Shown: positions 10,796 to 52,438, counted from the first letter of the stretch. The stretch: DNA of 64,000 nucleotides from Candidatus Poribacteria bacterium (GCA_965205025.1 CBDBFU010000027.1:70294-134293); one strand, 5' to 3'. Notes: generated by a model not told the origin, from the letters alone. Translations and numbers: made by a program.

Positions 10796-10896
10796 ATGAG
10801 GATTAAGTAAATATTTCGGTAATCCAGTCCATAAACTTATCGTAGGGGCGGGGTTAACCCGCCCGTATATTACCGATTTAATAAATTAATCTTCAT
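10796..10896. mobile_element. MITE with ATGARGATTAA/TTAATCTTCAT ends, inserted in a REP loop
   Basis: CACAAACTTT|ATGAGGATTAA...CGGTAAT...ATTACCG...TTAATCTTCAT|TTAGTTTGTG; contains a GTAG REP. Confidence 0.85.
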
Positions 10897-11183
10897 TTAG
10901 TTTGTGATCTTCCACCCCTCTCTTTGTACCACAAACTTTTAGTTTGTGATCTTCCACTCTTCTGTATGAGGGAATTCCAATTCCCGACCCTTCCATCCTT
11001 TATGTCAGAATCGCGGATTACGCGGATTACACAGATTTCACGGAACGGTTTTTGCTTGTGGTAAATGTTCATGTGAATGAAAAAGTGTTTGTGTTGCTTA
11101 AAAAACAACATCATTTTTACCAAAACAACTCTTCTCCGCGTAATCCGAGAATCAAAAAACCCTCTCTTTGTACCACAAACTTT

Positions 11184-11298
11184 ATGAAGATTAAGAAAAT
11201 ATTTCGGTAATTCTAATTTCCCAAACCCGGTAGGTGCGGTTTCCTAACCGCACTGGATCTTATCTTTAAAATTACCGAATTTAAAAATTAATCTTCAT
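11184..11298. mobile_element. MITE of the same ATGA...TCAT family with a different REP cargo
   Basis: CACAAACTTT|ATGAAGATTAA...TTAATCTTCAT|TTAGTTTGTG. Confidence 0.85.
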
Positions 11299-11477
11299 TT
11301 AGTTTGTGATCTTCCACTCTTCTGTATGAAGGAACTCCCATTCCCGACCCTTCCAATATATAACTTCAAATATACATATAAATCATATTAAAGATACAAT
11401 AATCCCCTTTTGTCATGTTCAAGCCTGGTAGTCATAACACAGATAGACAAACAGGTTATCCCTGTCTGTAAACAAAG

Positions 11478-11499
11478 CAAATATCAATATTGATATTTG
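11478..11499. promoter_or_regulatory. Perfect 22-bp palindrome upstream of the surface-protein gene; candidate operator
   Basis: CAAATATCAATATTGATATTTG is its own reverse complement. Confidence 0.4.
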
Positions 11500-11592
11500 A
11501 GTATTTAGAAAGATTTAGATATAAGGATTTAAATTCCCTGAATCTTAACATGACTTGAATAACTTTTTTTAAAAATAAAAGGAGTTTATGAA

Positions 11593-14500
11593 ATGAATAT
11601 GTCAAATCGATTGACATTTAGTATTTTAAGTATATTTTTACTGCTTGCATTCGTGGCAGTGCCGGTGATGGCACACGCGCCAGATGACGACACGGTAGGA
11701 CCGCACACCACACATCCAGTGGAGGTAGCAGTTCCTGAAGTTACAGGAGATAACCGTGTACCAGCGGTGCCTGTACACGGTCCACATCCGATGGTAACGA
11801 GTATTGCCCTAAAACCCGCTGCTGGTAAGGTTCGGGACAATATGGTAGTGGTTGGTGTCGCACCTGCTACGCCAACTGATGGCATTGATGCAAATGAGTT
11901 TGTCCTAATCGTTACTTTTGACCGTCCTGTCGTTGGTGCAACAGGTTCTACAGATCAGGATACGGATGGTGATGGTGATAAAGATGCTGTTGATGCTGCA
12001 GCGATTCTTACTGCTTCAACTGGTAATGATAATGAGGTATTGTATTCTGTCCGAGATAAAATGCGTGTTGCACTTGCCACGCAAACTGATATTACCTTTA
12101 AAGATGTCAAATTTATGGGGACTACCTATGACAAATTTGAAGTCACAGTAGAGGTTGGCACAAGTGCTGTCCCTACAGGCACGGCAACTGATGCGACCGA
12201 AAAGGTGATCCTCATAGTGCAAATTGGGGCTGGTGCTGTGTTTAGTGCACAAACATCAATACCGGATCCTCAGGGTGGTGTAACAGATGTAATCGTTCCT
12301 GGTGGAGCGAATTTGGCGTCAAATGCAAGAAATTCAGAGTTTATGTTGGTCAAAGCGTTGCCAACAGTTACAGTCGCTGATACAACAAAACCGACACTGA
12401 CGATTACACATGCCCCCGCTGATAACATGCCCCTTCCCGATAGTGGTAATGTGACATTTACCTTTACTTTTAATGAGGAGCCTGGTGAAAATGATGCCGC
12501 TTTCACACTCGGTGATGTTACTATTGACGGTGGTAGGGCTGTTGACTTTGGTGGTAGTGGCATGGTGTATACGGTGGAAGTAACGCCTGATGATCCAATG
12601 ATGTCTGTGACAGTAACCGTTGCTGCGACCGCAGTATCGGATGCCGCTGGCAATAACCTTGCTGAAGGTCAAACAGAAACATATATGGCTGATGATACTG
12701 TAGCTCCAACAGTCGAAATTACTGCTAAAAAGATCGCAGATGGTGATAATGCAGGTAAAATTCTTTTCACATTAACATTTAGTGAACCGCTTGGAGCGGG
12801 TGAATCTGCCTTGTCAAGGAATGACCTTGCACTCAGCACTGGTGCTTCGGTGGCAAGAATTCCTATGAAGGATGATAATGATGATAAAGTATGGACGGTA
12901 ATTGTCACCCCATCTGCCTCAGGTCCGACAACACTAACAATCGAAGGTGGTTCGGTTAAGGACGTGCAAGAGAATGCATTGTTAGCAGATAAGTCACATA
13001 CGTATGTAGCACCTGATGCACCTGTGGTTGCTGCCAAGGATCCGACAACGGCAACCATCCCAAGCATATTTGGGTTCAGCATTCCAGCGAATTCTTACGT
13101 TGTTCTTACGAGAAACGCACTAGCCACGCCACGGCAAGATGGTCTGAACTTCCGAGACGTGCCTGATAGTAAGGTAGTCGTTTGGGAGAACATGCCTGAT
13201 TTATGGGAGCGCCTATTTGATAGAGGTTATGAAGGTGGTGGCGCACTTGTTTTGAGATCCTCTTACGGCGATGCCGCTGCAGATAGACCCAAAGTTGGTA
13301 CCGTTGGTATTAGCGAGATTATGTGGGCTATTGATGTAGGAAAATATGGTGATTTTAGAGGAACCGATCGCACAGATCCCCGCAATAAAACGTGGTTAGA
13401 TTCACAGTGGGTTGAAGTTCACAATCTCAATGCGAAAGCCGTGAAGGTCTTGATATATGCGCAAACAGGACGCGATCTTGTTGGCACTGGCAACGTTGTT
13501 GGCAATACGAAGGCTGGCGATACAATCCACGGCAACCCCGGTGGTATGGTCGTTGATGTCATGACAAACTTCTTTAACGGTGCAGACCGTGGAAGCGGTG
13601 GTTGGGATGTACCCGGCGCGAACGGTAATAGCAAAGCAGGTGTTGATTTCATCTCAATGGCACGGCAGCCGAAGCGTGGTTCATTTAACTTGACCCGTAG
13701 ACACGAGAATAAGGCTGATAAACCGTTGGATGGCTTATATGCCAAAACAGGCGGAAGTGAGCAGAGTTTAGATGGCAGAGCTTCCGGTAGTTGGGCAGCG
13801 GGCAGTGTGATTTATGAAAGGGAAGATACGGATATACCTTCTGGTACTACAGCTGCTCTCCCGTTAACTTATGAATATTTAGGTACACCGGGACATCCGA
13901 ATACAAGGGCACCTGCAAGTCATATCACCCGAAATGCTCGGACAAGTGTGCCAAGCAATACTGTTATCATCAACGAGGTTGCGAACCGTAATGATGTACA
14001 TAAAGCTTACGAATGGATTGAGCTTCGCAATGTTTCTACTGCTGAAATAAACCTGCGGAATTATCTCATTTCAATTGTACAGGCTGTGGACAGTGATAAA
14101 GTCTTGTATCAATTCCCAGCAAACGATAATGCCAAGATTGCTGTAGGCGGAGTGTTCCTCTTAGTCGCCTCTGATCCGAGTGGCAATCCGAGCCATCCCT
14201 TAGCAGCAGGATACAACGTTGATAAAAATGACGAAGATCAAGTGCCAGGTTCGCGCAAAAACCCTGTGCGATATAAGGTCGCTGATGTTGGTGGTGTCCC
14301 CGGTTTTGGTAATGGTCGAAACACAGGTGAGAGTGTAACAACCTTACCAGACAGTGGTAAATTCGTCCTGATCCTACGTAGACCAGACAACCATGAAGGT
14401 CACAGGTCTGGTGCTGATGGTGGCAAAGGTGTTGCTGAACGCGGTAAAGATGACGTTGATAAGATCGTTGATATCGCTGGATGGCACGATAACTTGAAGA

Positions 14501-15948
14501 AAACCGGTTTTGACAATGCGGTGTCTTCAACGGATTTATGGCCACTTCGAAGTTTCCGTGCACCTAATTTTAATCTGAATTCGTTCCAACCAGAGACGGT
14601 TCACTTCCGCCAACGCGGTGCCCATGGTCTTGGAGGCGTCAACGATGGTGCCAGTGGTGTTGGTGCGCATGAAAATAAGAATGAAGGTGGCAAAGCCGCG
14701 TTCCGTGATGAAGGTTATTCCGGTATCGGTTACAAACGCCAAGCTTCCAAAACCAATTTCCACGGCGGAAGTCCTGGCTACCACGGTAACGTGAGCGGAC
14801 GAGTTGATGCTACTGCGAAAGTTGTTATCAGTGAAATTATGTTGTCTCAAGGCAACGGTCGTGTGAAACTGCCACAGTGGATTGAACTCTACAATCCTTC
14901 TAAGACGCATGCAGTCAACCTCACGGATAATGCTGGCTGGAGACTCGTTATCGAAAATCCAAATCGTGCACCTATCAGAACTATCCACTTCAAGAGTGGT
15001 AAGCATGATGTGAAAACGATCCTGCCGAATCAAACAGTGCTCATCGTTTCATCGGCGGCAAGGGATTATGGTAGTGATACCTTATCGAGAGGTACGGTAT
15101 TTCCAAATACTCGTGTCCTGAATGCATATACAGTCCTGAAGGGTGAAACTTTTGAGATGGCAAGCCGGACAGATGTGCTCCTTGATCCAAAGGCTTTCAA
15201 CGTCAGATTGTTGGATGGTAAAACACACGACAATAAGCCTGGTGGACGCTATATTGGTGACGTATCAGACGAAGTTGGTAACCTTGACGGTAACCCGCGA
15301 ACGAATGATGCGGCTGCATGGGAATTCCCAGACGGTGTGACTGAAGAGGGTGATCGCACTTCACTCATCCGTATCTTTGATGAAGGTATGGCTCGCAGTG
15401 GCACAGGCATGGTGAAACCGCTTGGTGGCACAGATGGTGTCGGTGTTGACGGAATGCCCGGTATTGATGCCAAGTATAGTTGGGTTCATGCCGCTGATAC
15501 AGAAGACTTTGAGAAGCTCTTTGTCCGTCATACGTGGTATGGTGCTGAAACTGATTACGGCACACCCGCAGACCGTACAGGTCAAGTCTTACCTGTTCAA
15601 TTATCACACTTCCGTCCGACGCTTGAAGATGGTAAAGTTACGATCCGTTGGACAACCGAATCCGAACTTAACAACGCTGGATTTAATATCCTTCGTAGTG
15701 AAACACGGTACGGTGAGTACAAGCAGGTAAATGCTGAACTGATTCAAGGTCACGGAACAACCGGTGAACGTCATACCTATAAATGGGTTGACGAATCCGC
15801 TAAACCGAATGTAGTTTACTACTATCAAATTGAAGACGTATCCTTCGCCGGCGAGCGTCAAACGCTTGCTCTAACCAAGTTGAAAGGACTTATCTCAGCC
15901 GTAGGTAAAGCCACAACAACGTGGGGCGATATTAAAGAGGTACAATAG
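11593..15948 (+). CDS. 1451-aa secreted protein: signal peptide, Ig-like repeats, ~3 lamin-tail domains, fn3-like domain, C-terminal WGxxK tail
   Basis: RBS AAGGAG; hydrophobic leader ending VMA; DTTKPTLTIT/DTVAPTVEIT Ig starts; ISEIM/INEVA...EWIEL motifs. Confidence 0.85.
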   Translation: MNMSNRLTFSILSIFLLLAFVAVPVMAHAPDDDTVGPHTTHPVEVAVPEVTGDNRVPAVPVHGPHPMVTSIALKPAAGKVRDNMVVVGVAPATPTDGIDANEFVLIVTFDRPVVGATGSTDQDTDGDGDKDAVDAAAILTASTGNDNEVLYSVRDKMRVALATQTDITFKDVKFMGTTYDKFEVTVEVGTSAVPTGTATDATEKVILIVQIGAGAVFSAQTSIPDPQGGVTDVIVPGGANLASNARNSEFMLVKALPTVTVADTTKPTLTITHAPADNMPLPDSGNVTFTFTFNEEPGENDAAFTLGDVTIDGGRAVDFGGSGMVYTVEVTPDDPMMSVTVTVAATAVSDAAGNNLAEGQTETYMADDTVAPTVEITAKKIADGDNAGKILFTLTFSEPLGAGESALSRNDLALSTGASVARIPMKDDNDDKVWTVIVTPSASGPTTLTIEGGSVKDVQENALLADKSHTYVAPDAPVVAAKDPTTATIPSIFGFSIPANSYVVLTRNALATPRQDGLNFRDVPDSKVVVWENMPDLWERLFDRGYEGGGALVLRSSYGDAAADRPKVGTVGISEIMWAIDVGKYGDFRGTDRTDPRNKTWLDSQWVEVHNLNAKAVKVLIYAQTGRDLVGTGNVVGNTKAGDTIHGNPGGMVVDVMTNFFNGADRGSGGWDVPGANGNSKAGVDFISMARQPKRGSFNLTRRHENKADKPLDGLYAKTGGSEQSLDGRASGSWAAGSVIYEREDTDIPSGTTAALPLTYEYLGTPGHPNTRAPASHITRNARTSVPSNTVIINEVANRNDVHKAYEWIELRNVSTAEINLRNYLISIVQAVDSDKVLYQFPANDNAKIAVGGVFLLVASDPSGNPSHPLAAGYNVDKNDEDQVPGSRKNPVRYKVADVGGVPGFGNGRNTGESVTTLPDSGKFVLILRRPDNHEGHRSGADGGKGVAERGKDDVDKIVDIAGWHDNLKKTGFDNAVSSTDLWPLRSFRAPNFNLNSFQPETVHFRQRGAHGLGGVNDGASGVGAHENKNEGGKAAFRDEGYSGIGYKRQASKTNFHGGSPGYHGNVSGRVDATAKVVISEIMLSQGNGRVKLPQWIELYNPSKTHAVNLTDNAGWRLVIENPNRAPIRTIHFKSGKHDVKTILPNQTVLIVSSAARDYGSDTLSRGTVFPNTRVLNAYTVLKGETFEMASRTDVLLDPKAFNVRLLDGKTHDNKPGGRYIGDVSDEVGNLDGNPRTNDAAAWEFPDGVTEEGDRTSLIRIFDEGMARSGTGMVKPLGGTDGVGVDGMPGIDAKYSWVHAADTEDFEKLFVRHTWYGAETDYGTPADRTGQVLPVQLSHFRPTLEDGKVTIRWTTESELNNAGFNILRSETRYGEYKQVNAELIQGHGTTGERHTYKWVDESAKPNVVYYYQIEDVSFAGERQTLALTKLKGLISAVGKATTTWGDIKEVQ

Positions 15949-16126
15949 GGTTAAATTTCAGGGATAATTTAACCGTTCTCCTCAACGCATGGACACTGCA
16001 GGGTCTCGATTGAGGAATCTATCTAAACAATATTCTACAATAAGAGCCGGCTGTGATCTCAAAAATGCAGCACTCTTATTGTAGAATACCTCACATACCC
16101 AATCCCAATGATCTTAAACAAGAAAC

Positions 16127-16164
16127 AGGGTCTCGTAGGCAACTACAAGACCCTATTTCTTTTT
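16127..16164 (+). terminator. Intrinsic terminator (duplicate of 1813..1850)
   Basis: Same hairpin and T tract. Confidence 0.7.
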
Positions 16165-16340
16165 CCCACCCCTTGATAGGTTTTCTTTTTCCCACCCTTT
16201 GGTAGGTTCGGTTTCCCGGGGAATGCCTAATGGCATTCATACCGTTGATTCCTTGATTCGAGGGGCGAAAGGTGTAATATATCTGAACAGCGGATTATAC
16301 CATTTTCAAATGTCTATAGCAAAGATGGTGCTCCATGTTC

Positions 16341-16628
16341 TTGAGTTCCGTAGGAACGGAATGTCTATAGCAAAGATTGTTGTTCCATATTCTTGAGTTC
16401 CGTAGGAACGGAATGTCTATAGCAAAGATGGTGCTCCATGTTCTTGAGTCCCATAGGGACGGAATGTCTATAGCAAAGATTATTGCTCCATATTCTTGAG
16501 TTCCGTAGGAACGGAATGTCTATAGCAAAGATGGTGCTCCATGTTCTTGAGTCCCATAGGGACGGAATGTCTATAGCAAAGATTATTGCTCCATATTCTT
16601 GAGTCCCGTAGGGACGGAATGTCTATAG
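16341..16628 (+). repeat. Tandem REP array, 6 hairpins
   Basis: As 2027..2263 with one extra unit. Confidence 0.9.
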
Positions 16629-16690
16629 CACATTTCTCGTTGATTTGGTAAGGACAAAATGATAAAATACAAACCGTGAGGAGTAATACC

Positions 16691-17164
16691 ATGGCAAACA
16701 CATATACACAATTATATATACATATTGTTTTTGCAGTTGAACATCGTCAAAACCTAATTCCGAAGGAACATAAAGAAGAACTTCACAAATTCATTACAGG
16801 TATAATCACCAATAATAAACATAAAATGATCCAAATCAATTCTATGCCAGACCATATACATATTTTTGTTGGTATAAACCCTTCAATGGCATTATCAGAA
16901 TTGGTAAAAGATATTAAAGCAAATTCATCACGATTCATAAACAAGAAGCAATGGGTTTCCGGTCAATTCAAATGGCAAGATGGTTATTCAGCCTTTACTT
17001 ATGCACATTCACAATTAGAGAGTGTATCAAATTATATCCTTAATCAAGAAAAGCATCATAAGCAGAAGTCGTTTAGAGAAGAATATATTGAGTTGTTAAA
17101 ACGATTTAATGTTGATTATGATGAAAGATATATTTTTCATCCAGTGTTAGAGAGCGATTCTTAG
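16691..17164 (+). CDS. tnpA: IS200/IS605-family Y1 transposase, REP-associated (duplicate)
   Basis: Identical to 2326..2799. Confidence 0.9.
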   Translation: MANTYTQLYIHIVFAVEHRQNLIPKEHKEELHKFITGIITNNKHKMIQINSMPDHIHIFVGINPSMALSELVKDIKANSSRFINKKQWVSGQFKWQDGYSAFTYAHSQLESVSNYILNQEKHHKQKSFREEYIELLKRFNVDYDERYIFHPVLESDS

Positions 17165-17282
17165 AAGATCATACGTGTCTTGAGAACTCCACCTATATGT
17201 TGATATAGACATTCCGTCCCTACGGGACTCAATTATGTGGGTATACACGTTTTCTATAGACATTCCGTCCCTACGGGACTCA

Positions 17283-17758
17283 ACACCCTTAATGAAACCA
17301 CCTGAAGACTTGAACACGGAAGCATGGCTTCAAAATGTGTTGAAACGACAGAATCCGCACCCGTTGACACACAAACGCGTGGCACACTACTGTTTGCCTT
17401 ATCAACATTAGGTAGTTTAACCTATGACGCAAATCTTTTTCAAAAACTCATATCGGAGGAAATGATGCAAGAATCTCCTTTTATAGAACTCATAATGCAG
17501 CGTAGCAGAGAACAAGGTATAGAACAAGGCAGAGAACAAGGTAGAGAACAAGGCAGAGAACAAGGTTCACTTGAAATGTCTGTTAAACATATACTGTCAA
17601 TCCTTACTGAGCGTTTTCCGTTGAGTGATACGGAACCTGTAGCAGAAGTCCTTGAACCTATTCAAGACCTTGATCGCTTAACAAAACTGCTTCGCATAGC
17701 GGTTCGAACATCCAGCGTTGAAACATTTCTACAAGAAGTAGAAACATCCGAAGAATAA
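17283..17758 (+). pseudogene. 5'-truncated Rpn with an intact C-terminal cassette (17462..17758, expanded EQG repeats)
   Basis: Fused to a REP at ACACCCTTAATG; internal GGAGG-AA-ATGATG start. Confidence 0.85.
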
Positions 17759-17762
17759 GGAA

Positions 17763-18011
17763 ATGATGCAAGAATCTCCTTTTATAGAACTCATAATGCA
17801 GCGCTATATAGAACAAGGTTCACGTGAAATGTCTGTTAAAAATATACTGTCTATCCTTACTGAACGTTTTCCATTAGAGGATGTGCAACCTGTTTTAGAA
17901 GCACTTGAACCTATTCAAGACCTTGATCGTTTATCAAAACTGCTTCGCATAGCAGTTCGAACATCCAGCGTTGAAACATTTCTACAAGAAGTAGAAACAT
18001 CCGAAGAATAA
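17763..18011 (+). CDS. Stand-alone RpnS-like cassette, 82 aa
   Basis: MMQESPF start; TAAGGA Shine-Dalgarno. Confidence 0.75.
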   Translation: MMQESPFIELIMQRYIEQGSREMSVKNILSILTERFPLEDVQPVLEALEPIQDLDRLSKLLRIAVRTSSVETFLQEVETSEE

Positions 18012-18243
18012 AAACTCCAGATTCACCCTTGTTGATATTGCATTCATACCAGGGGCTAACCCTCTTCTCCGCGCAATCCGCGCAATCCGTGATTCAGACA
18101 ACCAAGAACGCTCTTCTCCGCGTAATCCGCGTAATCCGCGTAATCCGCGATTCAGACAACCAACAACAACATGCAGAGCACGCACTCCAGCGGAGTGCTA
18201 TATATCTCAAATCTCTTGATGTGGTGCAAGTTATTAATCCCAA

Positions 18244-18573: not shown

Positions 18574-18682
18574 AATTATATAAGGAAAATATAATAGTAA
18601 AAATGCTCTCAAAACTCATAATTATAGTTGAGTTAAGAGAGCATAATCATAATGAAGTTAGATATCTAATGATTCAGATCTG

Positions 18683-25106: not shown

Positions 25107-25953
25107 CACCATTTCTGGTAATTAAAGTCCCATTACAAAAATCTCTTTAATGTAGCACAAACTTCATAAAGATTAATTTTTTAAATCGGTAATTCTAATT
25201 CCCCCAAACCCGGTAGACGGGGAATGCTATATAGCATTCATACCCGGGGAATGCCATAAGGCATTCATACCGTTGATTCCTTGATTCCTTGAGTCCCATA
25301 TGAAGTTAAAAAAATAAAATAGGTAATTTGGACCCAGAGCTGGTAGGTGCGGTTTCCTAACCGCACTATTAGCGTCAATTTAGGGAAAAAATTGTTATAT
25401 CCCAGGCCGGTAGGTGCGGTTTCCCAACCGCACAATTAGCGTCAATTTTATGATATATTGCTATTGGTTTTGGAATATTGAGTCCAATAGGAACAGAATT
25501 TTCATAGAAGGTGTTATCACCAATATCTCAATCCCCAGCGGGGCGAAATGTGTGTAGTAAACGTACAACCCCCTAAACACTAAACCCCAGCGGGGTGAAA
25601 GGTGTTCCTAAATTGACGCCTATGGTGCGGTTTCCTAACCACACCGGATTCTACAAGAAACTGGAAATTACCCGAATAAATTCTTTAACTTCATTAGGGA
25701 CGGAATGTTTATAGAAAATGTGTGAATATCCTAAGCCCCAGCGGGGCGAAATGTGTGTAGAAAAACGTACTAAACCACTAAACCTAAGCCCCAGCGGGGC
25801 GAAATGTGTATCCTTAGCTTAAATTGACGCTTATGGGGCAGGGTTTCCCACCCGTATATTACCGAATTATTATTTTAATCCTCATCCAGTTTGTGTAGTA
25901 TTTCAAGATATAAATATCACCTAATCATGGGATAATCATTTATAGAAATGGTA
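25107..25953. mobile_element. Nested stack of non-autonomous elements and REPs
   Basis: Outer CACC...GGTA; ATAAAG...CTCAT 25166..25885; ATGAAG...CTTCAT 25300..25694; IS4-type ends at 25367/25434 and 25624. Confidence 0.8.
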
Positions 25954-42065: not shown

Positions 42066-45000
42066 ATGAATTCCTGGCAAGATATAATAGAACGTTGCCA
42101 CCGACGACACAAGAAAAGACTAAGACAACGCAAAACAGTTGTAACTCCTGCATTATATAAGCGAAATTTTTATCATTTTAAGGTTTACTGCTCTCGCCAA
42201 AACCACGTAATGCTTGATGAACTTGAACGTGCGAACATCTCATTCATGCCAATCGGGCACGCTCCGGAGAACGACAGCGGTCCGAAGGACTTAGGTGGTG
42301 ATCGTTTCTTGGAACGTCAACGTACACGAAGCTGGCGGGAGAGCAACTGGTTCACATCATGGGGAATTCAGATATACACCGGGATACCCTCAGAATTTGA
42401 TAGTGCGCGTTGGCACGACTTTGAATTCACATATCAGGCACTCTGTGCTGCTCCAGATGTAGTGATAACGTGTATTGAGGCACTCGCCAAGATAACTGCG
42501 AACCCATTATTGGTATTGACAAAATCGGCCGGACTCCGTTTTTCCTGTAGGGTCCCAGACTATCTCCATTCAGACAACCCAGCAGCGAAGTTATACATCT
42601 ACAAACATGCACCGACACCCGATAATCCACACCACCGAGATGTCTACCTTGAAATCCGTGGGAAAAATAGGTACAGTCGGTGGGATGCACGCTACGAGAT
42701 CCTCTGTGGGAATTTGTTAGCCCCACCTGTTATCGCCAAAGAGCTTCTTTTTGAACCTATAAATACGCTGCGGGATGTGCTTCACGCACCGGAACCATCG
42801 GGAGAAACACCCACTGAACCCATGCTCTCTATCCCAGACTCCCTCGGTTCAGACGACCTTGATCTCGCAAAAGAAGCGTTTCTAAAGCGCGGTTTTAACT
42901 ATCTCAAACAGGATATGGATTTTCACCACTGGGTTTTTCACGGGAACGAAGGTCAAACCGTATACGCCTGGTTATGGGAAGAACAAGGCATTATATCGGT
43001 TCGCTCTTCAACTCCTATCAACGGATTGATGATGAGAGGCGTGCCGATAACACGTATCTGGGACGACACCGGCATCGTGACACCTGCAATATCTGGTATG
43101 CCAATAACTGATGAAAAACTCGCTGTACGGGAAGGAAAACTAAGTCCCTTAGCTATAAAACGACCCAAACTTGTGTCTTCAGCCAAAGAACCCGGTAAAA
43201 AGGTTGATGCAGCAGAAAAGGAGAATACGGACTGGATACGACGTGTAGTCGATATGGACACACGTGTTATCGGAATCAATACGGATACAAATCCAGACAC
43301 AAATAACGAAGTAGAATCCTATCTCCGCAACGGTGGTGCACTATGCTTAAATATACCAAACCGCCGTTTAGCAGCAGCAGTAGAACGACGGTATGAATCA
43401 CTCAAACTCCCCTCTTATGCCCGTTGGAAAGCCCGGATGTATCAATGGGAGGAGGTGAAGGATATACCGATTAACGAGCGTATAGCAACCCCATTTGAAC
43501 GTGGGAACGTTTGTGAGGATGCTGATCGGTGCCGAATCTATGGACTAAAAGGGGGAGAGCCGTACGAAGGTATCTGCCCGAAGTGTCCCGTTTACACAGA
43601 ATGCCAACAGCGCGGGTATCTATCGCAAATCCGCTTATTACAAGATGCCAAGGTACAAATATCACCGACTCATCAACTGTTTCTCGACCCGCAACACGCA
43701 AAAGCATTGGAACAAATCCTTGACACCTCAGATGAAACAGAACGAATTTGTATGATTGATTACAGGAAAATAGATATAGGAGACCTATTTCTCAGATGTG
43801 AATTCTCAAAAAAGGTATTAGAGCAGTGGGCAGCAAACTGGCGAGGCATGGCATTAGGCAACTTTACGGATGCCCTACTGAAGGTGCTTGAACCTGAAGG
43901 TTACCCTAATGAAAACCCTACCGACCGTGTTCGAGAAACAGTCTACGCATTTCAAATGCATGAAGAAGAGATCGTCCGACAGATGTGCCAGATAAATGTC
44001 CGAGGGAAGGTCATAGAATACACGACTGTTGATCCAAAAACAGGAAGCGAATTAGCACGCCTACGCATAACGTTTGAAGGTGGTGCTTCTGCCGACATTC
44101 CTGTGGATGCTGATGCGGAAGATATACTCAGAGCAAACGAAATGCCATGTTTTTCATTCAAGCCGTTTGCCTTAAACGAGGATATCCAAATTCCAATGTC
44201 GATGGAGACAGCAGTTGCGTTAGAGGTTTTGGATACAGGCACTGTAGAGAAGATTCTGGAATTTCCAACTGTTTGTCGGCACCCGAACTGGACGTTATGG
44301 CATCAGCTAAAACGTTTCTTTACACATTACAAGCGAAGTATTGATGCCCCGATGTGGTGGGACGGCGAAAAACTGTCGTTCCGCGTTCCACCAGTGCTGC
44401 ATCCGAGCGTTAAACGCCTGCTGTTAATATCACCCTCCCTCTACGAAAACTATCTTCGAAGGATATTCCCAGATGACAAGGTTGAATTCATCTCCACAAA
44501 AGCGACACCGTGGGTTAAAGGCAACCGCGTCTTCCAACTACGCACTGACCACACAATCTTAAACGATGATAACAATTGGGACGTGCCAAGCCTGTCTAAA
44601 ACAGGAGAACGCCTCTTTACTGGAATCTGCGCAGAAATTGAACAAGACCCAAGTGTTCAACATACAATTGTCGTCAATACACCGATTTCCAAATTTTTGG
44701 TGGATATCGCCGAAAAGGAGAACGTCTGTTTCGTGAAAGATTTCAAAATGTTGCACGAAGAGGATACTGAATTTGAAGCAGCGCAGGTTGTGTGGATGGT
44801 CGGCACACCGTTCTGGCCACAAAGCACTGTTTGGCGACAGGCACAGATGTTATTTGGAAATGATGAAAAGCCACTTCTTTATGAGCAAACATCAGAGTCC
44901 GTTCACTATAAAGACGAACGCGTACAAGAGGTATACCAACAAAATATTGTCAGTTTACTCACACGCATTATAGGTCAGATAGGGATGAACCGTCTGCCCG

Positions 45001-45443
45001 ACAAGAAGATCGTGTTAATGACGAGTTTGGCACTGCCTAACATCACCGACAGACCGGAAACGCTACTTTTCGACTGGGAAGACTTTGAGGTCGCAGGTGG
45101 GTTGAATAAATTGCCTGAAGTTATCGCAACACGCGAACGTTTTGAAACAGAGGCTTCCAATTTAACTGCAAATTCCAGTAGAGAAAAAGTTGAACAGGTC
45201 TTAGGATGCTCAGCACGGCAAGCTAACCGGATGCTACAAAAACTAAGAGGCGGGAAACCGCTACGTGTTCCCTACCGAGAACAGATATTCTCTCTCCTTG
45301 CTAAAGGTGAAAAAAGGACTTCCGAACTTTTGGCAGCTATTGATGGACCTCCAAAATGCATAGACAATGAACTCAGAAACCTTATAGAAAAAGGTGAAAT
45401 TATGAGAGTGCAGCGAGGGGTCTATTCACTACCTAAGGCGTAA
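42066..45443 (+). CDS. 1125-aa paralog of 7314..10736 (Prim-Pol-like / Cys cluster / HTH)
   Basis: SWGIQIYTG, WHDFEF, LTKSAGLRF, LEIRG, CEDADRC...CPKCPVYTEC, LIEKGEIMRVQRGVY. Confidence 0.6.
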   Translation: MNSWQDIIERCHRRHKKRLRQRKTVVTPALYKRNFYHFKVYCSRQNHVMLDELERANISFMPIGHAPENDSGPKDLGGDRFLERQRTRSWRESNWFTSWGIQIYTGIPSEFDSARWHDFEFTYQALCAAPDVVITCIEALAKITANPLLVLTKSAGLRFSCRVPDYLHSDNPAAKLYIYKHAPTPDNPHHRDVYLEIRGKNRYSRWDARYEILCGNLLAPPVIAKELLFEPINTLRDVLHAPEPSGETPTEPMLSIPDSLGSDDLDLAKEAFLKRGFNYLKQDMDFHHWVFHGNEGQTVYAWLWEEQGIISVRSSTPINGLMMRGVPITRIWDDTGIVTPAISGMPITDEKLAVREGKLSPLAIKRPKLVSSAKEPGKKVDAAEKENTDWIRRVVDMDTRVIGINTDTNPDTNNEVESYLRNGGALCLNIPNRRLAAAVERRYESLKLPSYARWKARMYQWEEVKDIPINERIATPFERGNVCEDADRCRIYGLKGGEPYEGICPKCPVYTECQQRGYLSQIRLLQDAKVQISPTHQLFLDPQHAKALEQILDTSDETERICMIDYRKIDIGDLFLRCEFSKKVLEQWAANWRGMALGNFTDALLKVLEPEGYPNENPTDRVRETVYAFQMHEEEIVRQMCQINVRGKVIEYTTVDPKTGSELARLRITFEGGASADIPVDADAEDILRANEMPCFSFKPFALNEDIQIPMSMETAVALEVLDTGTVEKILEFPTVCRHPNWTLWHQLKRFFTHYKRSIDAPMWWDGEKLSFRVPPVLHPSVKRLLLISPSLYENYLRRIFPDDKVEFISTKATPWVKGNRVFQLRTDHTILNDDNNWDVPSLSKTGERLFTGICAEIEQDPSVQHTIVVNTPISKFLVDIAEKENVCFVKDFKMLHEEDTEFEAAQVVWMVGTPFWPQSTVWRQAQMLFGNDEKPLLYEQTSESVHYKDERVQEVYQQNIVSLLTRIIGQIGMNRLPDKKIVLMTSLALPNITDRPETLLFDWEDFEVAGGLNKLPEVIATRERFETEASNLTANSSREKVEQVLGCSARQANRMLQKLRGGKPLRVPYREQIFSLLAKGEKRTSELLAAIDGPPKCIDNELRNLIEKGEIMRVQRGVYSLPKA

Positions 45444-45580
45444 CATAGAAAATATAAAACACCCCCTAACAGCATTTACTCTGCAACAGCTAAAAACCAA
45501 TAATTGAAAACTATATGATTCCGTGATATTCATGTCAAATACTTTACACACCAATACTTCAGTTGTATAATTATTAACAT

Positions 45581-45756
45581 ATGTGATTCACGGAGAATGA
45601 GCACGTTTTAAATTATAAACCCTTACAGAATAAGGGTTCGTAAAATTGCTCCGTGAAGGTTTCCGTGAAAGTGAGATCATTTTAGAGCAATAAATATTAA
45701 CACTTTTCCATTCACATTATCCATACATCTAATATAATTAGGTCTTTTATCTCACT
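45581..45756 (+). repeat. Conserved ~177-bp non-coding element, copy 2
   Basis: See 26193..26370. Confidence 0.8.
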
Positions 45757-45956
45757 TTGAAAGTATAAGTAGCGTTTGTGATATTCTGATACAATTGCAG
45801 CGTAATGTTTAGTGACATAAACTCTACATACTCCTAACAATTAACTTACTTGACAAAAACTGTTATAACCTATTTAATAAAATGAATCTTACATTAATAA
45901 TGTCATGTATATGAGATCTTATGTATACGAGTGAATTTAGGAGATAAAAATATAGT

Positions 45957-46418
45957 ATGAAAATAGAAAAACGACTTGAAGAATTAGGTATAGAATTGCC
46001 GGAACCCGCGACACCCGTTGCGAATTATGTTACAACTGTGCAAACAGGAAATCTCATCTTTACATCAGGACACGGACCAGGTACAGGTGAGGGTAAAATC
46101 TATAAAAGCCAACTGGGTACAGATGCTACCATAGAGGAAGGATATGAATCTGCACGACAGGTTGCTATCGGTCTAATTAGTACGCTGAAACATGCCTTAG
46201 GGGATCTTGATAGAATCAAACGAGTTGTCAAGGTTGTTGGATTTGTTAACTCCTCGGCTGATTTTACGGACCAACCTGCTGTTGTGAATGGTGCCTCTGA
46301 TTTCTTTGTAGAAGTATTTGGAGATAAAGGTAAACATGCGCGATCCGCTGTAGGTATGGTGCAGTTACCGGGTGGTATTCCAGTTGAAGTTGAAATGGTA
46401 GTAGAAATAGAAGACTAA
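45957..46418 (+). CDS. RidA/YjgF-family protein
   Basis: PVANYV, FTDQPAVVNGASD, GKHARSAVG..LP..IPVEVE. Confidence 0.9.
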   Translation: MKIEKRLEELGIELPEPATPVANYVTTVQTGNLIFTSGHGPGTGEGKIYKSQLGTDATIEEGYESARQVAIGLISTLKHALGDLDRIKRVVKVVGFVNSSADFTDQPAVVNGASDFFVEVFGDKGKHARSAVGMVQLPGGIPVEVEMVVEIED

Positions 46419-46440
46419 TCACCTTACCTCGGAAGGAATT

Positions 46441-47634
46441 ATGGCAGTTCAAATTGTTGAATCACGCATACGCGGTTTTATCTGTACAAATGCTCACCCT
46501 GCCGGTTGTTCGGTAAATGTTCAGAATCAGATAGCCTTAATTAAGGAGAAAACCCAACAGAAAGCTGAAGGAATAAATGCTCTTGTTGTTGGGGCATCTA
46601 CAGGATACGGACTTGCTTCACGCATTGCATTGACGTGGGGATATGGAGCTAAAACCTTGGGTCTCCTTTACGAACGACCCGCAGATAGCAGGAGAACAGC
46701 CACTGCAGGTTATTACAATACATACGCTTTCCATCAACATGCAGAGGATGACGGTTTTCAGGCAGATAGTCTAAATGGAGATGCATTTTCTGATGAGATG
46801 AAACAGGAAGCGCTTACAAAACTAAAATCCAATTTCGGGAAAGTAGATGTCCTTGTTTATAGTATTGCTGCCCCTCGTCGTATCCATCCCCATACAGGAG
46901 AATCTCATAAATCGGAATTAAAACCTATTGGTAATTCCTATACTGGAAAAACTATTGATTTAAATAATGAGACTGTTGTGCCTGTAACGATTGAATCGGC
47001 AAATGACCAAGAAATTACGGATACAATCGCTGTGATGGGTGGAGAAGATCTGGAGATGTGGGTGGATATGCTAATAGATGAAGATCTCCTTGCATCAGAG
47101 GTTACAGTTGTAGCATATACCTATATCGGGAGTGAATTAACCTGGCCTATTTACCGAGATGGCACAATCGGAAAGGCAAAGGATGATTTGAAGGTTCGTG
47201 TAGATGCACTTGATGGAAAACTTGCAAACCTATATGGTGGTAATGCATATATTTCGGTTAACAAAGCTGTAGTCACACAAGCCTCTGCTGCAATACCTGT
47301 TGTCCCTCTCTACATTAGTATTCTCTACGATATTATGAATGAAAAAGGGATCAATGAAGCCCCTATAGGTCAAATGCAACGACTTTTCTCAGAACATCTC
47401 GGTCCGGGTTTACAACCACAACTTGATAATGAAAGATATATTCGGTTGGATGATAGAGAATTGCGACAGGATGTGACAGACATTGTCACGGATCGTTGGG
47501 ATAAGATTAATACTGACAATTTCTATGAACTTTCAGATTATGCAGGTTACAGAAAACGTTTTCGTAACCTATTCGGTTTTGAAGTTGAGGGTGTTGATTA
47601 TAATGAAGCAGTCGAAACAGAATTGATATTTTAA
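46441..47634 (+). CDS. fabV: Trans-2-enoyl-CoA/ACP reductase FabV
   Basis: [59 protein letters not shown]. Confidence 0.93.
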
Positions 47635-47644
47635 GGAGAAACTT

Positions 47645-48367
47645 ATGGCAGGACCTTTAGTTACAGTTTGGAATGAATTTAGACATGAAAAAACTAATGA
47701 AACTATCAAGAAAATATATCCAAAAGGTATCCACTCGGTAATCGCAGATGGATTGAGTGAACACGGTATTGAAACGTTGACCGCTACATTAGATGAACCG
47801 GAACACGGTTTAACTGATGCTGTGTTGGAAAAGACGGATGTATTAATATGGTGGGGACACGCTGCTCACGGTGCTGTAGAAGATGAAATCGCAGATAAAG
47901 TAAAAGCACGAGTATTACAAGGAATGGGATTGATAGTCCTACATTCAGGACACTATTCTAAACCCTTTGTACGATTAATGGGAACATCATGTAGTCTCAA
48001 ATGGCGTGAAGCAGCAGAGAAGGAACGTATTTGGGTTATTGAACATGGACACCCGATTGTTGATGGTCTTGGTGAATACTTTGAAATTGAACATGCAGAA
48101 ATGTATGGTGAACCGTTCGATATTCCAGAACCAGATACACTTGTTTTTATTAGCTGGTTTCCTGGTGGAGAAGTTTTCCGAAGTGGATGCTGTTATTATC
48201 GTGGTAGAGGAAAGATATTTTACTTCCGTCCGGGTCATGAAACCTATCCGATATATTATGACAAGAATGTTCGGCATGTCATCGCAAATGCAGCCAAATG
48301 GGCGGCACTTGGGGATGCACCTAAACCTGTATTCGGAAATGCCAAACCGTTAGAACCGCTTAGTTAA
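47645..48367 (+). CDS. ThuA-domain (trehalose utilisation-like) protein
   Basis: [38 protein letters not shown]. Confidence 0.9.
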
Positions 48368-48440
48368 GATACCCCAACTTCTAACTAACAAGAATCAAGT
48401 TGGTTAGGTATTGTACCTAATCAACTTGATTAATTTAACA

Positions 48441-49925
48441 ATGAAGAACAACGATACGCAGAATATAGAAAAGATTGATATTCCACCTGTGACCGGAGCA
48501 TTTTCTGAACCGTGGTCATTAAAGAAGATATTTGCCTTGGCATCTGTCTTTGGTCCCGCAGCAATTGTAGCATCTGTGAGTATTGGGGCGGGAGAGACGA
48601 TAGTAGTTGTTCGTGCTGGTGCCTGGGCAGGTTACGATTTACTGTGGCTTGTGCTCCTCAGTTGCGTTGTTAAGGGTGTGTTTGTAACTTATCTTCTTGG
48701 TCGGTATACAGCGGTCAGTGGAGAATATATCGGTAATCGTCTTGCGAAATTACCTGGACCACGGGGTTGGTTATTAATTGCAATTGTTATATTTGAGATG
48801 GTTGGTGCCCCATTAGCTTGGGTTCCCATTGCCAAACCGTGCGGTGCGTTGCTCCATTTTCTCCTGGAGAGCAGACTACCCTCATCAGTTTCGGTGACAG
48901 TCTGGCAAAACCTTCTTACCTCCTGCTTTATTACATTAGCTTTACTTTTCGGTTTACGTCTTTCCTTTGAAAAGTTAGAAAAACAGCAACTGATCATCTG
49001 TGGAATACTTGTCGCTGGAACTGTTATAGGGACACTCATGGTTCGACCTGATATTGGTAAAGCCATTATTGGAAGTCTTAGTATTGGACATATACCCGAA
49101 TTTCCAGAATGGACACCACAGGATGCAGTGAAAAATCCATTATTAACTATGGCGACAACATTCGGTTATGTTGGTGGTTCTGTGATGGGGTATATTGTCT
49201 ATGCAAACTGGGTAAGTATACATAAATGGGGGATGACAGCACATAAGAACATAATTGGTATCCGAAACCTTGCTGGAACTCGGGATAGAATCGATTACCT
49301 ACCTGAAAGTCGTGATCAAGTAAGTCAATTACGCAAAATTCTCTCTCCATTGCGATGGGATATAGGCATGGGTGCTGTTGTATTGTTCATCGTAACCGGT
49401 GCTTTTATGCTGTCTGGTGCGGCAGTATTGTATGATCTTAGAAGTTCTTTTGACGGATGGAGTTTACTTACAGATCAAGCGAGTGTATGGAAAAATATCC
49501 ATTCCTCACTTGTATGGGTTTACTATATCTGTATTGTAGTTGCCCTATGGGGTACGTTACAAGCACTTCCTGAAATATACGCACGTGTAATCCAAGAATT
49601 CTTTCAAGCTATATGGCAAGATCGGGAATGGAACTATGATAAGATACGTCGGTGGATTTGTCTATATATATTCATTACAACTATGGTTATTATTTGGTTA
49701 AATATACCATTTGATATCTTGACACAGATTGCAGGTTTTATATTGGCAAATTTCTCAATTGCTTTGATGATGCTTGCTGCGATTTATCTGAATTTCAAAC
49801 TTCCCCGTGTTTATCGCACCGGTCCATTGATGTTTATTGGTTCACTTGTTTCCGCAGTTGTGCTCATTCTGTTTGCTGGAATTAGCGGATGGGGGTTGTT
49901 TGCTAAACTTTTTACGGGAAGTTAG
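48441..49925 (+). CDS. Nramp-like (APC superfamily) transporter
   Basis: FGPAAIVASVSIGAGE, GYDLLW, GRYTAVSGE; multiple TM segments. Confidence 0.75.
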   Translation: MKNNDTQNIEKIDIPPVTGAFSEPWSLKKIFALASVFGPAAIVASVSIGAGETIVVVRAGAWAGYDLLWLVLLSCVVKGVFVTYLLGRYTAVSGEYIGNRLAKLPGPRGWLLIAIVIFEMVGAPLAWVPIAKPCGALLHFLLESRLPSSVSVTVWQNLLTSCFITLALLFGLRLSFEKLEKQQLIICGILVAGTVIGTLMVRPDIGKAIIGSLSIGHIPEFPEWTPQDAVKNPLLTMATTFGYVGGSVMGYIVYANWVSIHKWGMTAHKNIIGIRNLAGTRDRIDYLPESRDQVSQLRKILSPLRWDIGMGAVVLFIVTGAFMLSGAAVLYDLRSSFDGWSLLTDQASVWKNIHSSLVWVYYICIVVALWGTLQALPEIYARVIQEFFQAIWQDREWNYDKIRRWICLYIFITTMVIIWLNIPFDILTQIAGFILANFSIALMMLAAIYLNFKLPRVYRTGPLMFIGSLVSAVVLILFAGISGWGLFAKLFTGS

Positions 49926-50028
49926 ATTAGTTAGAGACCCGTTTTTGGTATTGATACAAATATGTTGACACCATAATAGTTAAAAATGTAGAATTTACCA
50001 CAACACTGATGTACTAAGGAGATGACCC

Positions 50029-50751
50029 ATGGGAGATAATAAGACGAACGTTGAACAATTACTACAGAATGGATACTATCTAATTGAAGGCGCATTGTCT
50101 TCTGAAGAGACCGAACATATTAGACAACGCGTGAATTATGCACGCGAACAGGGATGGGAAGAAGGGTTAAATGCTGTAGGAAATATGTGGTTTGATTCCC
50201 TACTTGATCGTGAACCTGATACATATCAACCGCTTGTAGGACATCCGAGTGTGCGACCCTATCTTGAAGGTTTGATGGGTAAACAATGTCAACTACGAAG
50301 TCTTCGCGCACATATCAATCCCGGTCCATATCTACAAGAATGGCACATGGATTTTTATGGTTACTGGCATGAGAAACGGTATGTAGAAGAACATCCTTTT
50401 GCCATGGCACCGGCTGGTATCAACACAACTTACTACTTTCAGGATAATGATCCGGGTGAAGGACATCTTAAATTCGTAAAAGATGGACATATAAATGAAC
50501 CACCCCATCTATATCCTTTAGACCGTCCTAAATTTGAAGAATGGTGCGAGTCACAAGAGCATGTTATTCTATACCCAAAAGCAGGGGATTGTGTTGTTTT
50601 TATCAACCATATGCCACACCAAGGTGCGAAAGAGCGAGATGACATGGAGCGGAGTAATGTCGTATGCCACTACCAAGTTACACCAATGTATGATGGGGTT
50701 TGGCATGTCTCTCGACCTCGCGGATATCAAGGGACCTTCCCATTTGCATAG
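50029..50751 (+). CDS. Phytanoyl-CoA dioxygenase family (Fe/2OG) protein
   Basis: GYYLIEGALS, WHMD, KAGDCVVF..HMPH.G, terminal Arg; upstream TTGACA-18 bp-TAGAAT. Confidence 0.85.
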   Translation: MGDNKTNVEQLLQNGYYLIEGALSSEETEHIRQRVNYAREQGWEEGLNAVGNMWFDSLLDREPDTYQPLVGHPSVRPYLEGLMGKQCQLRSLRAHINPGPYLQEWHMDFYGYWHEKRYVEEHPFAMAPAGINTTYYFQDNDPGEGHLKFVKDGHINEPPHLYPLDRPKFEEWCESQEHVILYPKAGDCVVFINHMPHQGAKERDDMERSNVVCHYQVTPMYDGVWHVSRPRGYQGTFPFA

Positions 50752-50847
50752 AAAAAATAGATTATAGGATTGTTGTACTCTCTCTATCTGTTCTAACTGT
50801 TCTGATCAAATACAGTTATCTCTCAGATTGTCTTACCTCTGATATCT

Positions 50848-50885
50848 TGATATATATTATGTCTGTTCAGACATAATATATATCA
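50848..50885. repeat. Perfect inverted repeat with 18-bp arms
   Basis: TGATATATATTATGTCTG-TT-CAGACATAATATATATCA. Confidence 0.85.
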
Positions 50886-51170
50886 TATTGTATTGTATCT
50901 TGAGTTAGCACTAATTGATATTTCGTTTTTGGGTATCCTCTTTATTATAGGATGGATCCCAATGCCAACTCTTAGACCATCCTATGATGTCTTAGATAAA
51001 AAATATAGAATTCATCTAATCATATTTGTTGTTAATATCCTACCCAGCAATATAAAAGTTCAATCATTGGTCCAGTGTAGCAATATGTCTGTAGAAAAGT
51101 CAAAACATGGTTTATAAATGGAGCAATTAAACATATCCTAATGAACAAATTTTCACAGTTTTAGATTTTA

Positions 51171-51334
51171 TACCAATTCTAATTGATTAGTTTACATTAT
51201 TAGCATTCGGAAAAGTTAATTTACTTGAATAGGTATTGTATAGACATTCCGTCCCTACGGGACTCCAATTTTTATAGTAAATTAGTCCTATTTAGATGAG
51301 AATCGTAATGTAGATAGTTCAATTAAAAACGGTA
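51171..51334. mobile_element. TACC...GGTA MITE with a TTA duplication, carrying a tnpA-type REP
   Basis: TTA|TACCAATTCT...AAAAACGGTA|TTA; GTCCCTACGGGAC inside. Confidence 0.65.
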
Positions 51335-51354
51335 TTACTATAAAGGAAAACAAG

Positions 51355-52137
51355 ATGCAGAAATATATGATTCTCTTAATTGCCTTAGTCTATTTGATAG
51401 GGTTGTGTCAATCATTCTGTGTTGCCCAAGAATTAGAAGGATTAGTCGTCTATTTTGCATTTGAAGATGGTAGTGGGAAAACCGTTACAGATCTTTCAGG
51501 TAATGGAAACGATGGTACATTAGAAGGTGATACTGGTTGGGGAGATGGGAAATATGGCAAAGGACTCAATTTTGGTGGAAAGAATGGGATAGTTCGTGTT
51601 AAGCATTCTCATCACTTTGAATTCACAGACGGAATTACCATCTGTGCATGGGTTCGTCCTACGTTAGAAGTCGGTGCTGGTACGTGGCAACTGATTGCTG
51701 CTAAAGGACCAGATGTAGATGAATTCTTCGAAATCTTACTTCATCCAGATGGATTTATTTGGATGGGATGGAGGTTGACAGGTGGACGCGTTGTGCCAGC
51801 ACAGAGTCCCAGAAATGTCGTTAAAGATAAATGGCAACATGTCGCCGTTTCCTTTAAGACAAAGGATTGGTGGACAGTCTATCTTGATGGTAAGGTGTTA
51901 ATTAACCACCCGAAACAGAATGAGAAATTATTTCCTGTTGAATCCCCTCTGCTCCTGGGTACTGAAGAACCCCTCAATTTAAATCGATACTACAATGGTG
52001 AAATGGATGAGTTTGCTATTTTTAACCGTGGACTTACTGATAAAGAAATTGGAATGGTTCAAGATGGTATTCAAGATCTCCTACCCGTGGAACCAACAGA
52101 GAAACTACCAATTATTTGGGGTTTGCTGAAAAAGTAA
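51355..52137 (+). CDS. Secreted LamG (concanavalin A-like) domain protein with a WGxxK tail
   Basis: Signal peptide; DLSGNGNDG, WQHVA, YLDG, GEMDEFAIFNRGLT; ends VEPTEKLPIIWGLLKK. Confidence 0.9.
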   Translation: MQKYMILLIALVYLIGLCQSFCVAQELEGLVVYFAFEDGSGKTVTDLSGNGNDGTLEGDTGWGDGKYGKGLNFGGKNGIVRVKHSHHFEFTDGITICAWVRPTLEVGAGTWQLIAAKGPDVDEFFEILLHPDGFIWMGWRLTGGRVVPAQSPRNVVKDKWQHVAVSFKTKDWWTVYLDGKVLINHPKQNEKLFPVESPLLLGTEEPLNLNRYYNGEMDEFAIFNRGLTDKEIGMVQDGIQDLLPVEPTEKLPIIWGLLKK

Positions 52138-52153
52138 ACTTAATACTAATGTA

Positions 52154-52265
52154 TGCCAAATTGGCAGACAACATGAAATTTAAACGCTTAGTATAACTGC
52201 CAAATTGACTTGTAGAGAAATGATAACCTACTATATCAGCATGTAAGGTTGGCACAGATATTGCT
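52154..52265 (+). promoter_or_regulatory. sigma54 -24/-12 promoter of dnaK with upstream palindromic boxes
   Basis: TTGGCAC-AGATA-TTGCT (52249-52265); TGCCAAATTGGCA (52154) and TGCCAAATTGAC (52198). Confidence 0.7.
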
Positions 52266-52294
52266 ATTACTATATCAGTTTATCAGTTGTTTTC

Positions 52295-52438
52295 ATGAGG
52301 ATTAAGTTTTAAATTCGGTAATTCCCATTTTCCCAAACTTGGTAGGTTCGGTTTCCTAACCACGGGGAATGCTAAATAGCATTCATACCGTTGATTCGAA
52401 TTTCTAACACATTACCGAATTATTATTTTAATCTTCAT
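52295..52438. mobile_element. ATGA...TCAT MITE in the dnaK leader
   Basis: GTTGTTTTC|ATGAGGATTAA...TTAATCTTCAT|CTAAACAAC. Confidence 0.85.

Follow-up and report, generated by a model that had tools for sequence, protein, structure and literature searches.

Transposases of the DDE type are usually held to choose their targets by short sequence motifs or with the help of accessory proteins. In the IS630 family of insertion sequences (ISs), which moves by cut and paste, canonical members insert at the dinucleotide TA and duplicate it, and miniature inverted-repeat transposable elements, or MITEs, are common derivatives. The elements treated here follow another rule. They come from a window of 64,000 nucleotides (C27:70294-134293) in a 33-contig, 5.66-Mb genome of Candidatus Poribacteria (G000), where "the window" always means this whole stretch, and for which an earlier reading of the DNA (below, the sequence-only reading) had proposed a MITE family that inserts at the exact axis of hairpins with a 1-bp duplication. 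Followed through the whole genome, these elements insert on dyad axes whatever the sequence of the stem, and TA is not required.

Insertion into palindromic repeats is already known from other IS families. ISPsy8, ISRm22, ISPa11 and ISPpu9/10 insert in repetitive extragenic palindromes (REPs), in the case of ISPsy8 and ISRm22 at the symmetry axis of the palindrome (Tobes and Pareja 2006, PMC1525189). Each of these ISs is bound to a single repeat sequence and a single position. Their direct repeats measure 3, 6, 2 or 0 bp, and all of them belong to families other than IS630, which goes unmentioned in the accessible text of that paper (PMC1525189). By contrast, the hairpin-axis element uses many unrelated stems with a loop-dependent outcome, and its insertion is fixed relative to the axis and not to a sequence, which differs from the pattern of one repeat and one position seen in the REP-targeting ISs.

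Two further systems are relevant. One is IS1272 of Staphylococcus aureus, which we take to be a member of the IS1182 family. It targets inverted-repeat structures without target duplication, and its authors proposed an inverted-repeat-replacing mode; the abstract of that study describes neither axis precision nor loop dependence (PMC5678879). The other is RAG1/2, which in vitro prefers hairpin and cruciform tips, where 84% of events fall in the last four bases at the tips of cruciforms and the tip sequence alters efficiency more than 100-fold (Posey et al. 2006, PMC1618415). Both RAG1/2 and the hairpin-axis IS have a DDE transposase, but RAG1/2 is eukaryotic, belongs to another superfamily and was studied in the test tube, whereas the element described here is a natural bacterial one with hundreds of genomic insertions. 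A term search of the accessible text of a 2024 MITE review found neither IS630 nor hairpin targets (PMC10969869), and the open literature, which does not extend to subscription journals, ISfinder or TnPedia, yielded no IS630-type element on hairpin axes and no transposon for which a duplication of 1 bp is described; a prior description may exist in the sources outside it. As far as the accessible portions of these sources go, an axis rule in an IS630-type element appears to be new.

The window elements start with ATGARG(A)TTAA, followed by about 11 bases and GGTAAT, while the far end is the reverse complement of this (ATTACC..TTAA(T)CYTCAT). One identical base abuts both ends of each element, and the flanks are the halves of a short inverted repeat, namely CACAAACTTT/../TTAGTTTGTG (two elements), CACAAACTTC/../CCAGTTTGTG, GTCCCAT/../TAGGGAC and GTTGTTTTC/../CTAAACAAC, in which slashes, here and below, mark the borders of the element. 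The copies and their sites are as follows:

10796-10896, no strand assigned: MITE copy with ends placed by Hamming scan; it forms one long hairpin, at whose base the host arms pair.
10786-10795, plus strand: left half of the split hairpin, arm CACAAACT and loop bases TT.
10897-10906, plus strand: right half of the split hairpin, loop bases TT and arm AGTTTGTG.
10930-10948, plus strand: unoccupied intact hairpin CACAAACT-TTT-AGTTTGTG (= CACAAACTTTTAGTTTGTG).
11184-11298, no strand assigned: MITE of the 115-bp class in a second copy of CACAAACT-TTT-AGTTTGTG; flanks 11174-11183 and 11299-11308.
25166-25885, no strand assigned: outer MITE in CACAAACT-TCC-AGTTTGTG, 720 bp long together with the copy nested in it; flanks 25156-25165 and 25886-25895.
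25300-25694, no strand assigned: nested MITE of the subfamily with ATGAAGTTAAA ends, in GTCCC-ATA-GGGAC of the outer copy; flanks 25293-25299 and 25695-25701.
52295-52438, no strand assigned: MITE of the 144-bp class in the unique hairpin GTTGTTT-TCT-AAACAAC; flanks 52286-52294 and 52439-52447.

Reading of the sequence bears out the five elements that had been proposed, both in their positions and in their ends, and a Hamming scan for the 28-bp end, which gives exactly ten ends in the window, makes these five the complete set. An extra match with two mismatches at 5025-5052 was judged spurious by eye. The flanks of all five copies rejoin as a stem with the shared middle base on both sides, and every one of these MITEs holds a GTAG-tagged hairpin, as had been described. 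Intact versions of the first four sites exist as well: besides the copy at 10930-10948, exact empty copies occur in the genome for the TTT site (19), the TCC site (31) and the GTCCC-ATA site (23). At the 10796 site, 19 exact paralogous empty sites are recovered under a model of 1-bp duplication and 0 under a 0-bp model. No paralogous empty copy of the GTTGTTT-TCT-AAACAAC site was found in the genome.

With up to two mismatches, the 28-bp end has 366 matches in the genome as opposed to 12 in a shuffled genome (Hamming scan). Joined convergently, these ends give 147 pairs, while 72 ends remain unpaired; the nested pair of the window is the only one of its kind among the 147. In 127 of the pairs the last base of the left flank equals the first base of the right flank. 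In 110 of the 147 pairs the insertion point is the centre of a perfect stem of 5 bp or more, compared with 628 of 200,000 random positions. The axis of the best stem lies at offset 0 in 109 pairs, half a step off in 12 and elsewhere in 3, with 23 pairs being stemless. The hairpin-axis pattern that the sequence-only reading had seen in five copies thus extends to the 147 genome pairs and, as described below, to full-length ISs of other genomes. When the 147 pairs are scored by the loop bases retained on each side of the element within a perfect stem (5 bp or longer), the following classes are obtained:

Two bases on either side (2+2): 101 pairs, central bases identical in 96 and different in 5.
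Other symmetric classes (0+0, 1+1, 3+3, 4+4): 14 pairs.
Off by one (2+3 or 1+2): 12 pairs.
One base and three bases (1+3): 1 pair.
Perfect stem of 5 bp or more lacking: 19 pairs.

The two symmetric groups together place 115 pairs on the axis of such a stem. Among random positions, only 22 of 20,000 fall into the 2+2 class. The claim that the stems are unrelated in sequence is upheld on this larger scale, as the genome holds 43 distinct combinations of arm and loop, among which at least 15 unrelated stems can be counted by eye, plus single-copy hairpins. All four bases occur as the duplicated or flanking base.

The size of the duplication was assessed by joining nine flank bases from either side after removal of 0-3 shared bases and looking for an exact match elsewhere in the genome. 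An exact paralogous empty copy was found for 75 of the 147 sites under the 1-bp model, for 18 under the 0-bp model, for 1 under the 2-bp model and for none under the 3-bp model. The loop length of filled and empty sites was also tabulated where the stem is perfect and 7 bp or longer, using the 0-bp and 1-bp models only:

Spacer of 0 bases: filled 2, empty 395.
Spacer of 1 base: filled 4, empty 592.
Spacer of 2 bases: filled 2, empty 518.
Spacer of 3 bases: filled 90, empty 901.
Spacer of 4 bases: filled 12, empty 801.
Spacer of 5 bases: filled 0, empty 564.
Spacer of 6 bases: filled 0, empty 435.

Spacers of three bases are strongly preferred as targets. This can be followed within a single stem family, that of the commonest stem ACAAACT, whose empty copies have the loops GGAA (55), GGA (31), GAA (25), AAA (20) and AAC (5), and whose filled sites read GA/AA (24), GG/GA (12), AA/AA (10), AA/AC (6) and GG/GAA (3). 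Loops of three bases are filled 53 times and empty 84 times in this family, while loops of four bases are filled 3 times and empty 58 times. Sites with unlike abutting bases are still on axis (for example GT/AA, GT/AT and the even palindrome GAATGCTAT/ATAGCATTC) and represent 0-bp events.

A different outcome is seen in the repeat family tcaacggtat-GAATG[AT]C-loop-G[AT]CATTC, in which all 22 empty copies have loops of five bases (ATTTA, ATTAA, CTAAT and complements). Two bases remain on either side at 19 of its 21 filled sites, while one site has three and two and one is chimeric; the filled variants AT/TA, AT/AA and CT/AT pair one to one with the empty loops ATTTA, ATTAA and CTAAT. The simplest reading would be that these 5-base loops lose their central base on insertion. 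Alternatively, copies of this repeat with loops of three or four bases may all be filled already, in which case no base would be lost. That the 5-base loops are excision footprints is unlikely, because the central base is T in one orientation of the repeat in 22 of 22 empty copies, constant though elements insert either way round. Taken together, the outcome appears to be +1, 0 and -1 bp for loops of 3, 4 and 5 bases, respectively, with each joint two bases from its own stem arm. The 1-bp duplication of the sequence-only reading therefore stands as the commonest outcome but not as a constant one, since 0-bp events and an apparent loss of 1 bp are also found.

The sequence-only reading had placed the transposase outside the window, and indeed the whole of contig C27 has no match to the IS630 family. 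It was located elsewhere in the genome: eight of the unpaired ends have a common inner sequence, and BLAST recovered an element of 1,241 bp whose eight copies are 99.5-100% identical, seven of them complete and one at a contig end. The element has the same 28-bp ends as the MITEs and a single frame of 384 residues, free of internal stops in 8 of 8 copies. The predicted protein scores 181.7 bits against the NCBIfam IS630 model NF033545 (cut-off 100) and matches the Pfam domains DDE_3 (E 1.4e-22), HTH_32, HTH_29 and HTH_23. In an alignment of 18 relatives D191, D273 and E334 are invariant, corresponding to the catalytic D, D, E triad. Each of the seven complete copies sits on a hairpin axis and is flanked in the same way as the MITEs, and copies of 99.5-100% identity sit between different arms. 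Six of these seven lie in repeats with GAATGNC arms (e.g. C2:58651 and C18:10508), which are a main target of the full-length IS; the MITEs are mostly in the CACAAACT hairpin.

In its profile score, its DDE triad and the terminal inverted repeats (TIRs) around one transposase gene (about 1.1-1.3 kb), this IS agrees with the IS630 family. Like IS630/Tc1-mariner elements such as ISY100 (PMC2170065), it has a DDE transposase with N-terminal helix-turn-helix domains, one frame, TIRs that are about 28 bp long and a total length close to 1.2 kb. It does not insert at TA with duplication of TA and is therefore filed as a divergent relative of IS630 and not as a typical member; in contrast to canonical IS630 it takes any central base, with an outcome of 1, 0 or apparently -1 bp. 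The MITEs are small, non-coding and multi-copy, with ends that match those of the autonomous IS over 28 bp. They fall into size classes of about 101, 113, 115 and 144 bp (147 pairs in total), with identities of up to 100% within one class and class medians of 80-95%, and two internally deleted derivatives of the IS link it to them. By these features the window repeats can be classed as MITEs that belong to an IS of the IS630 type.

The second D and the E of the triad are 61 residues apart in the hairpin-axis IS versus 35 in resident canonical IS630 copies. Between them, at residues ~288-317 of the transposase (P0001), lies a conserved stretch, about 27 residues long, with many prolines and lysines and an invariant P..W, which some relatives have and others lack. 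This segment was considered as the cause of hairpin targeting and rejected, as relatives without it, including Acidobacteriota ISs of 1,125-1,151 bp, also lie on palindrome axes.

The same genome provides a control. Two canonical IS630-family ISs of about 905 bp, present in 9 and 5 copies (e.g. C28:30935-31390 and C15:189578-190072), have TA on both sides in all but one of the 14 copies (13 of 14), and a palindrome of 5 bp or more is likewise lacking at 13 of the 14 sites. The transposase of these ISs is apparently split over two frames. As the same method recovers the usual TA behaviour in canonical ISs, the hairpin rule belongs to one lineage, which, judged by its insertion sites, has altered its target rule relative to canonical IS630.

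This lineage extends to other genomes. Among 58 full-length relatives with the same ends and 70-84% protein identity, from records titled Candidatus Poribacteria, 47 have a repeated flank base and an on-axis stem of at least 5 bp, 7 an even axis, and 4 lie off axis. In the relative genome richest in copies, the main target repeat has 71 empty copies; 3-base loops are present in 49 of the 50 that were listed, and the commonest filled class is the matching TG/GG. Relatives at 61-79% identity behave in the same way. A search of 1.84 billion representative proteins returned 2,306 relatives at an E value of at most 0.001, and two sets at 32-47% identity, with a few loci common to both, were traced to genomes. 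For an IS of Ardenticatenaceae, 9 of 9 copies lie on the axis of one repeat (by eye), and ISs of Acidobacteriota lie in CCCAGCACT-K/M-AGTGCTGGG and in two unrelated palindromes. With automatically set boundaries, 88 distant loci, in which copies within a genome are non-independent, divide into 59 on axis, 1 off by one, 20 on no axis and 8 for which the ends were not found. The termini ATG...CAT are conserved throughout the distant relatives. The centre in these distant clades is mostly made of two unlike bases (T/A, G/C, T/C, G/A), which means no duplication, and one locus (L214) looks canonical, with TA on both sides and the palindrome absent. Down to about 40% protein identity, relatives on palindrome axes come from records titled Poribacteria, Chloroflexota, Acidobacteriota and Cyanobacteria.

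The explanation that we favour, and consider probable, is that the MITEs are moved in trans by the resident IS630-family IS, which joins its ends at hairpin tips and not at TA. The 384-residue DDE transposase, Tc1/mariner-like, would act on the MITEs by binding the 28-bp TIRs which they have in common with the IS, and presumably cuts and pastes as the IS630 family does. A short inverted repeat would take the place of TA as the target requirement, and the ends of the element would be joined at the tip of the possible hairpin, symmetrically on both strands. Each joining point would lie about two bases away from its stem arm, and the two points would not keep a fixed distance from each other, so that a 3-base loop gives +1 bp, a 4-base loop or an even palindrome 0 and a 5-base loop -1. 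The target would thereby be captured as an extruded cruciform or as a transient hairpin, perhaps at replication, instead of ordinary duplex, each strand transfer being placed from its own stem. We infer this capture of an extruded structure by the transposase from the insertion sites; it is supported indirectly by the loop-length-dependent stagger and the preference for 3-base spacers. In the ACAAACT family, the orientation of the element relative to the loop strand is unbiased (33 versus 22), in keeping with an event of two-fold symmetry. When single-stranded, the empty site at 10930-10948 forms a stem of 8 bp and a loop of 3 bases (-6.4 kcal/mol, z -4.7), and the filled sites form a long hairpin at whose base the host arms are still paired (-28 and -29.4 kcal/mol, z about -7.9). 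Because the arms of the host hairpin go on pairing below the inserted element, the hairpin would be extended by the insertion and not destroyed, and arms which are left pairable may explain how so many copies are tolerated.

Three other explanations can be given little weight. If insertion were random or directed to TA, selection could have spared only the copies in intergenic hairpin loops, where insertions should be harmless on the assumption that target repeats and hairpins are mostly intergenic. Such a filter cannot give single-base precision on the axis, where 109 of the 124 stem-bearing sites lie at offset 0, it leaves the difference between 3-base and 4-base loops within one stem family unexplained, and canonical IS630 ISs survive at non-palindromic TA sites in the same genome; we regard it as very improbable. 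The palindromic arms could also be part of longer terminal repeats that travel with the element, and an automated search for terminal repeats does extend into the flanks, which are themselves inverted repeats. Copies with the same end sequences nevertheless sit between unrelated arms, which holds even for the 99.5-100% identical IS copies, and the arms exist uninterrupted, in tens of copies, as independent repeats. The arms are the target and not part of the element, and of all the alternatives we give this one the least credence. A further possibility is that another enzyme moves the MITEs, for example a tyrosine transposase acting on GTAG-tagged hairpins, so that the IS630-type IS merely has the same ends. 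Each MITE does hold a GTAG-tagged hairpin, and repeats of the GTAG type are often associated with tyrosine transposases (PMC3733652). By eye, however, the full-length IS has no internal GTAG repeat between its ends and its frame and still shows the same insertion pattern, both here and in other genomes, and the ends of MITE and IS are the same over 28 bp, which makes a second enzyme highly improbable.

A more serious objection accepts the palindrome but reads it as ordinary duplex. Many DDE transposons show symmetric target preferences, of which this would be an extreme case, and a two-fold symmetric transpososome may simply prefer symmetric, bendable sites without any hairpin being formed. 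Unbiased orientation and symmetric insertion would also be expected from a symmetric complex on duplex DNA, short stems are poor at extrusion, and the T/A centres common in distant relatives recall the ancestral TA target. Against this, the stems, at least 15 by eye, share no bases, so that only the complementarity of the arms is left to be read, and this is invisible to a reading of the duplex. The stagger varies with loop length, whereas a rigid complex on duplex should give a single stagger, and on the same stem loops of three bases are filled far oftener than loops of four. We consider duplex reading unlikely. Capture of a hairpin tip by the IS630-type transposase has difficulties of its own. 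Stems of 5-9 bp with 3-base loops are poor at extruding by themselves. Of the 147 pairs, 19 lack a perfect stem of 5 bp or more, many of these being imperfect stems or chimeric pairs by eye, and the two-base rule has exceptions in nine 2+3 pairs and three 1+2 pairs, ATT/TA and A/GA being examples; GG/GAA, seen three times, is an off-centre 1-bp duplication in a 4-base loop. Loops are used unequally, with GAA, ATA and GGA filled often and AGC, GTA and CCA rarely, so some effect of sequence or context exists. The 1-bp loss in 5-base loops is known from paralogous copies and not from before-and-after alleles, and copies in one genome and in related genomes are non-independent events.

Extended to the distant relatives, the data suggest a multi-phylum branch of IS630/Tc1-mariner that would have abandoned recognition of a target sequence and would read secondary structure with a two-base ruler from the stem, the loop and not the enzyme setting the size of the duplication (+1, 0 or -1); this generalisation is tentative, and we rate its probability at a little short of even. 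If true, the system would be a natural model for the sensing of non-B DNA by a transposase and an in-vivo counterpart of hairpin-tip targeting by RAG. It may also explain how about 150 MITE copies are carried at little harm, as they land in hairpins whose arms can still pair. MITE finders which require a duplication of at least 2 bp will miss such families. In addition, the element could offer a testable route to integration directed by the shape of DNA.

The MITE at 52295-52438 lies next to a gene starting at ~52465 which, read from its start, is a putative dnaK. In the closest relative (G004), a MITE of a different subfamily sits at the identical point of the same dnaK-upstream hairpin, while in G005 the upstream region at this site differs. 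Adjoining the MITE in G004 (L005, minus strand, ~2075-1965) is a second, unrelated insert of ~110 bp, with a 5-bp direct repeat CTAAA at its flanks and a G/C-rich hairpin inside, which resembles a further small mobile element whose duplication is of the ordinary kind. When G004 is compared with the window at ~9800-12300, only the first 936 bases can be aligned. No true empty alleles were obtained from G004 or G005, and in two public read runs the region appears only in fragmentary contigs that end at the repeats.

The nested MITE at 25300-25694 has ends (ATGAAGTTAAA...) that are closer to the IS ends of relatives (L091, L092 and L137, with 77-79% protein identity) than to those of the resident IS, and the genome may lack the partner of this MITE. 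The host genome is rich in GTAG-tagged palindromic repeats. PF00124 (photosystem reaction centre) is absent from the host genome, which is 95.5% complete, and from the genomes of three relatives; a cyanobacterial host, considered at first, was rejected on this ground. The CACAAACT hairpin is part of a longer repeated unit (..gatcttccactcttctgtatgagggaattcc.attcccgacccttcca..), which is found at 10907-10990 and 11309-11355, beside both of the first two copies in the window, and units related to the repeat family with GAATGNC arms lie at 25215-25270.

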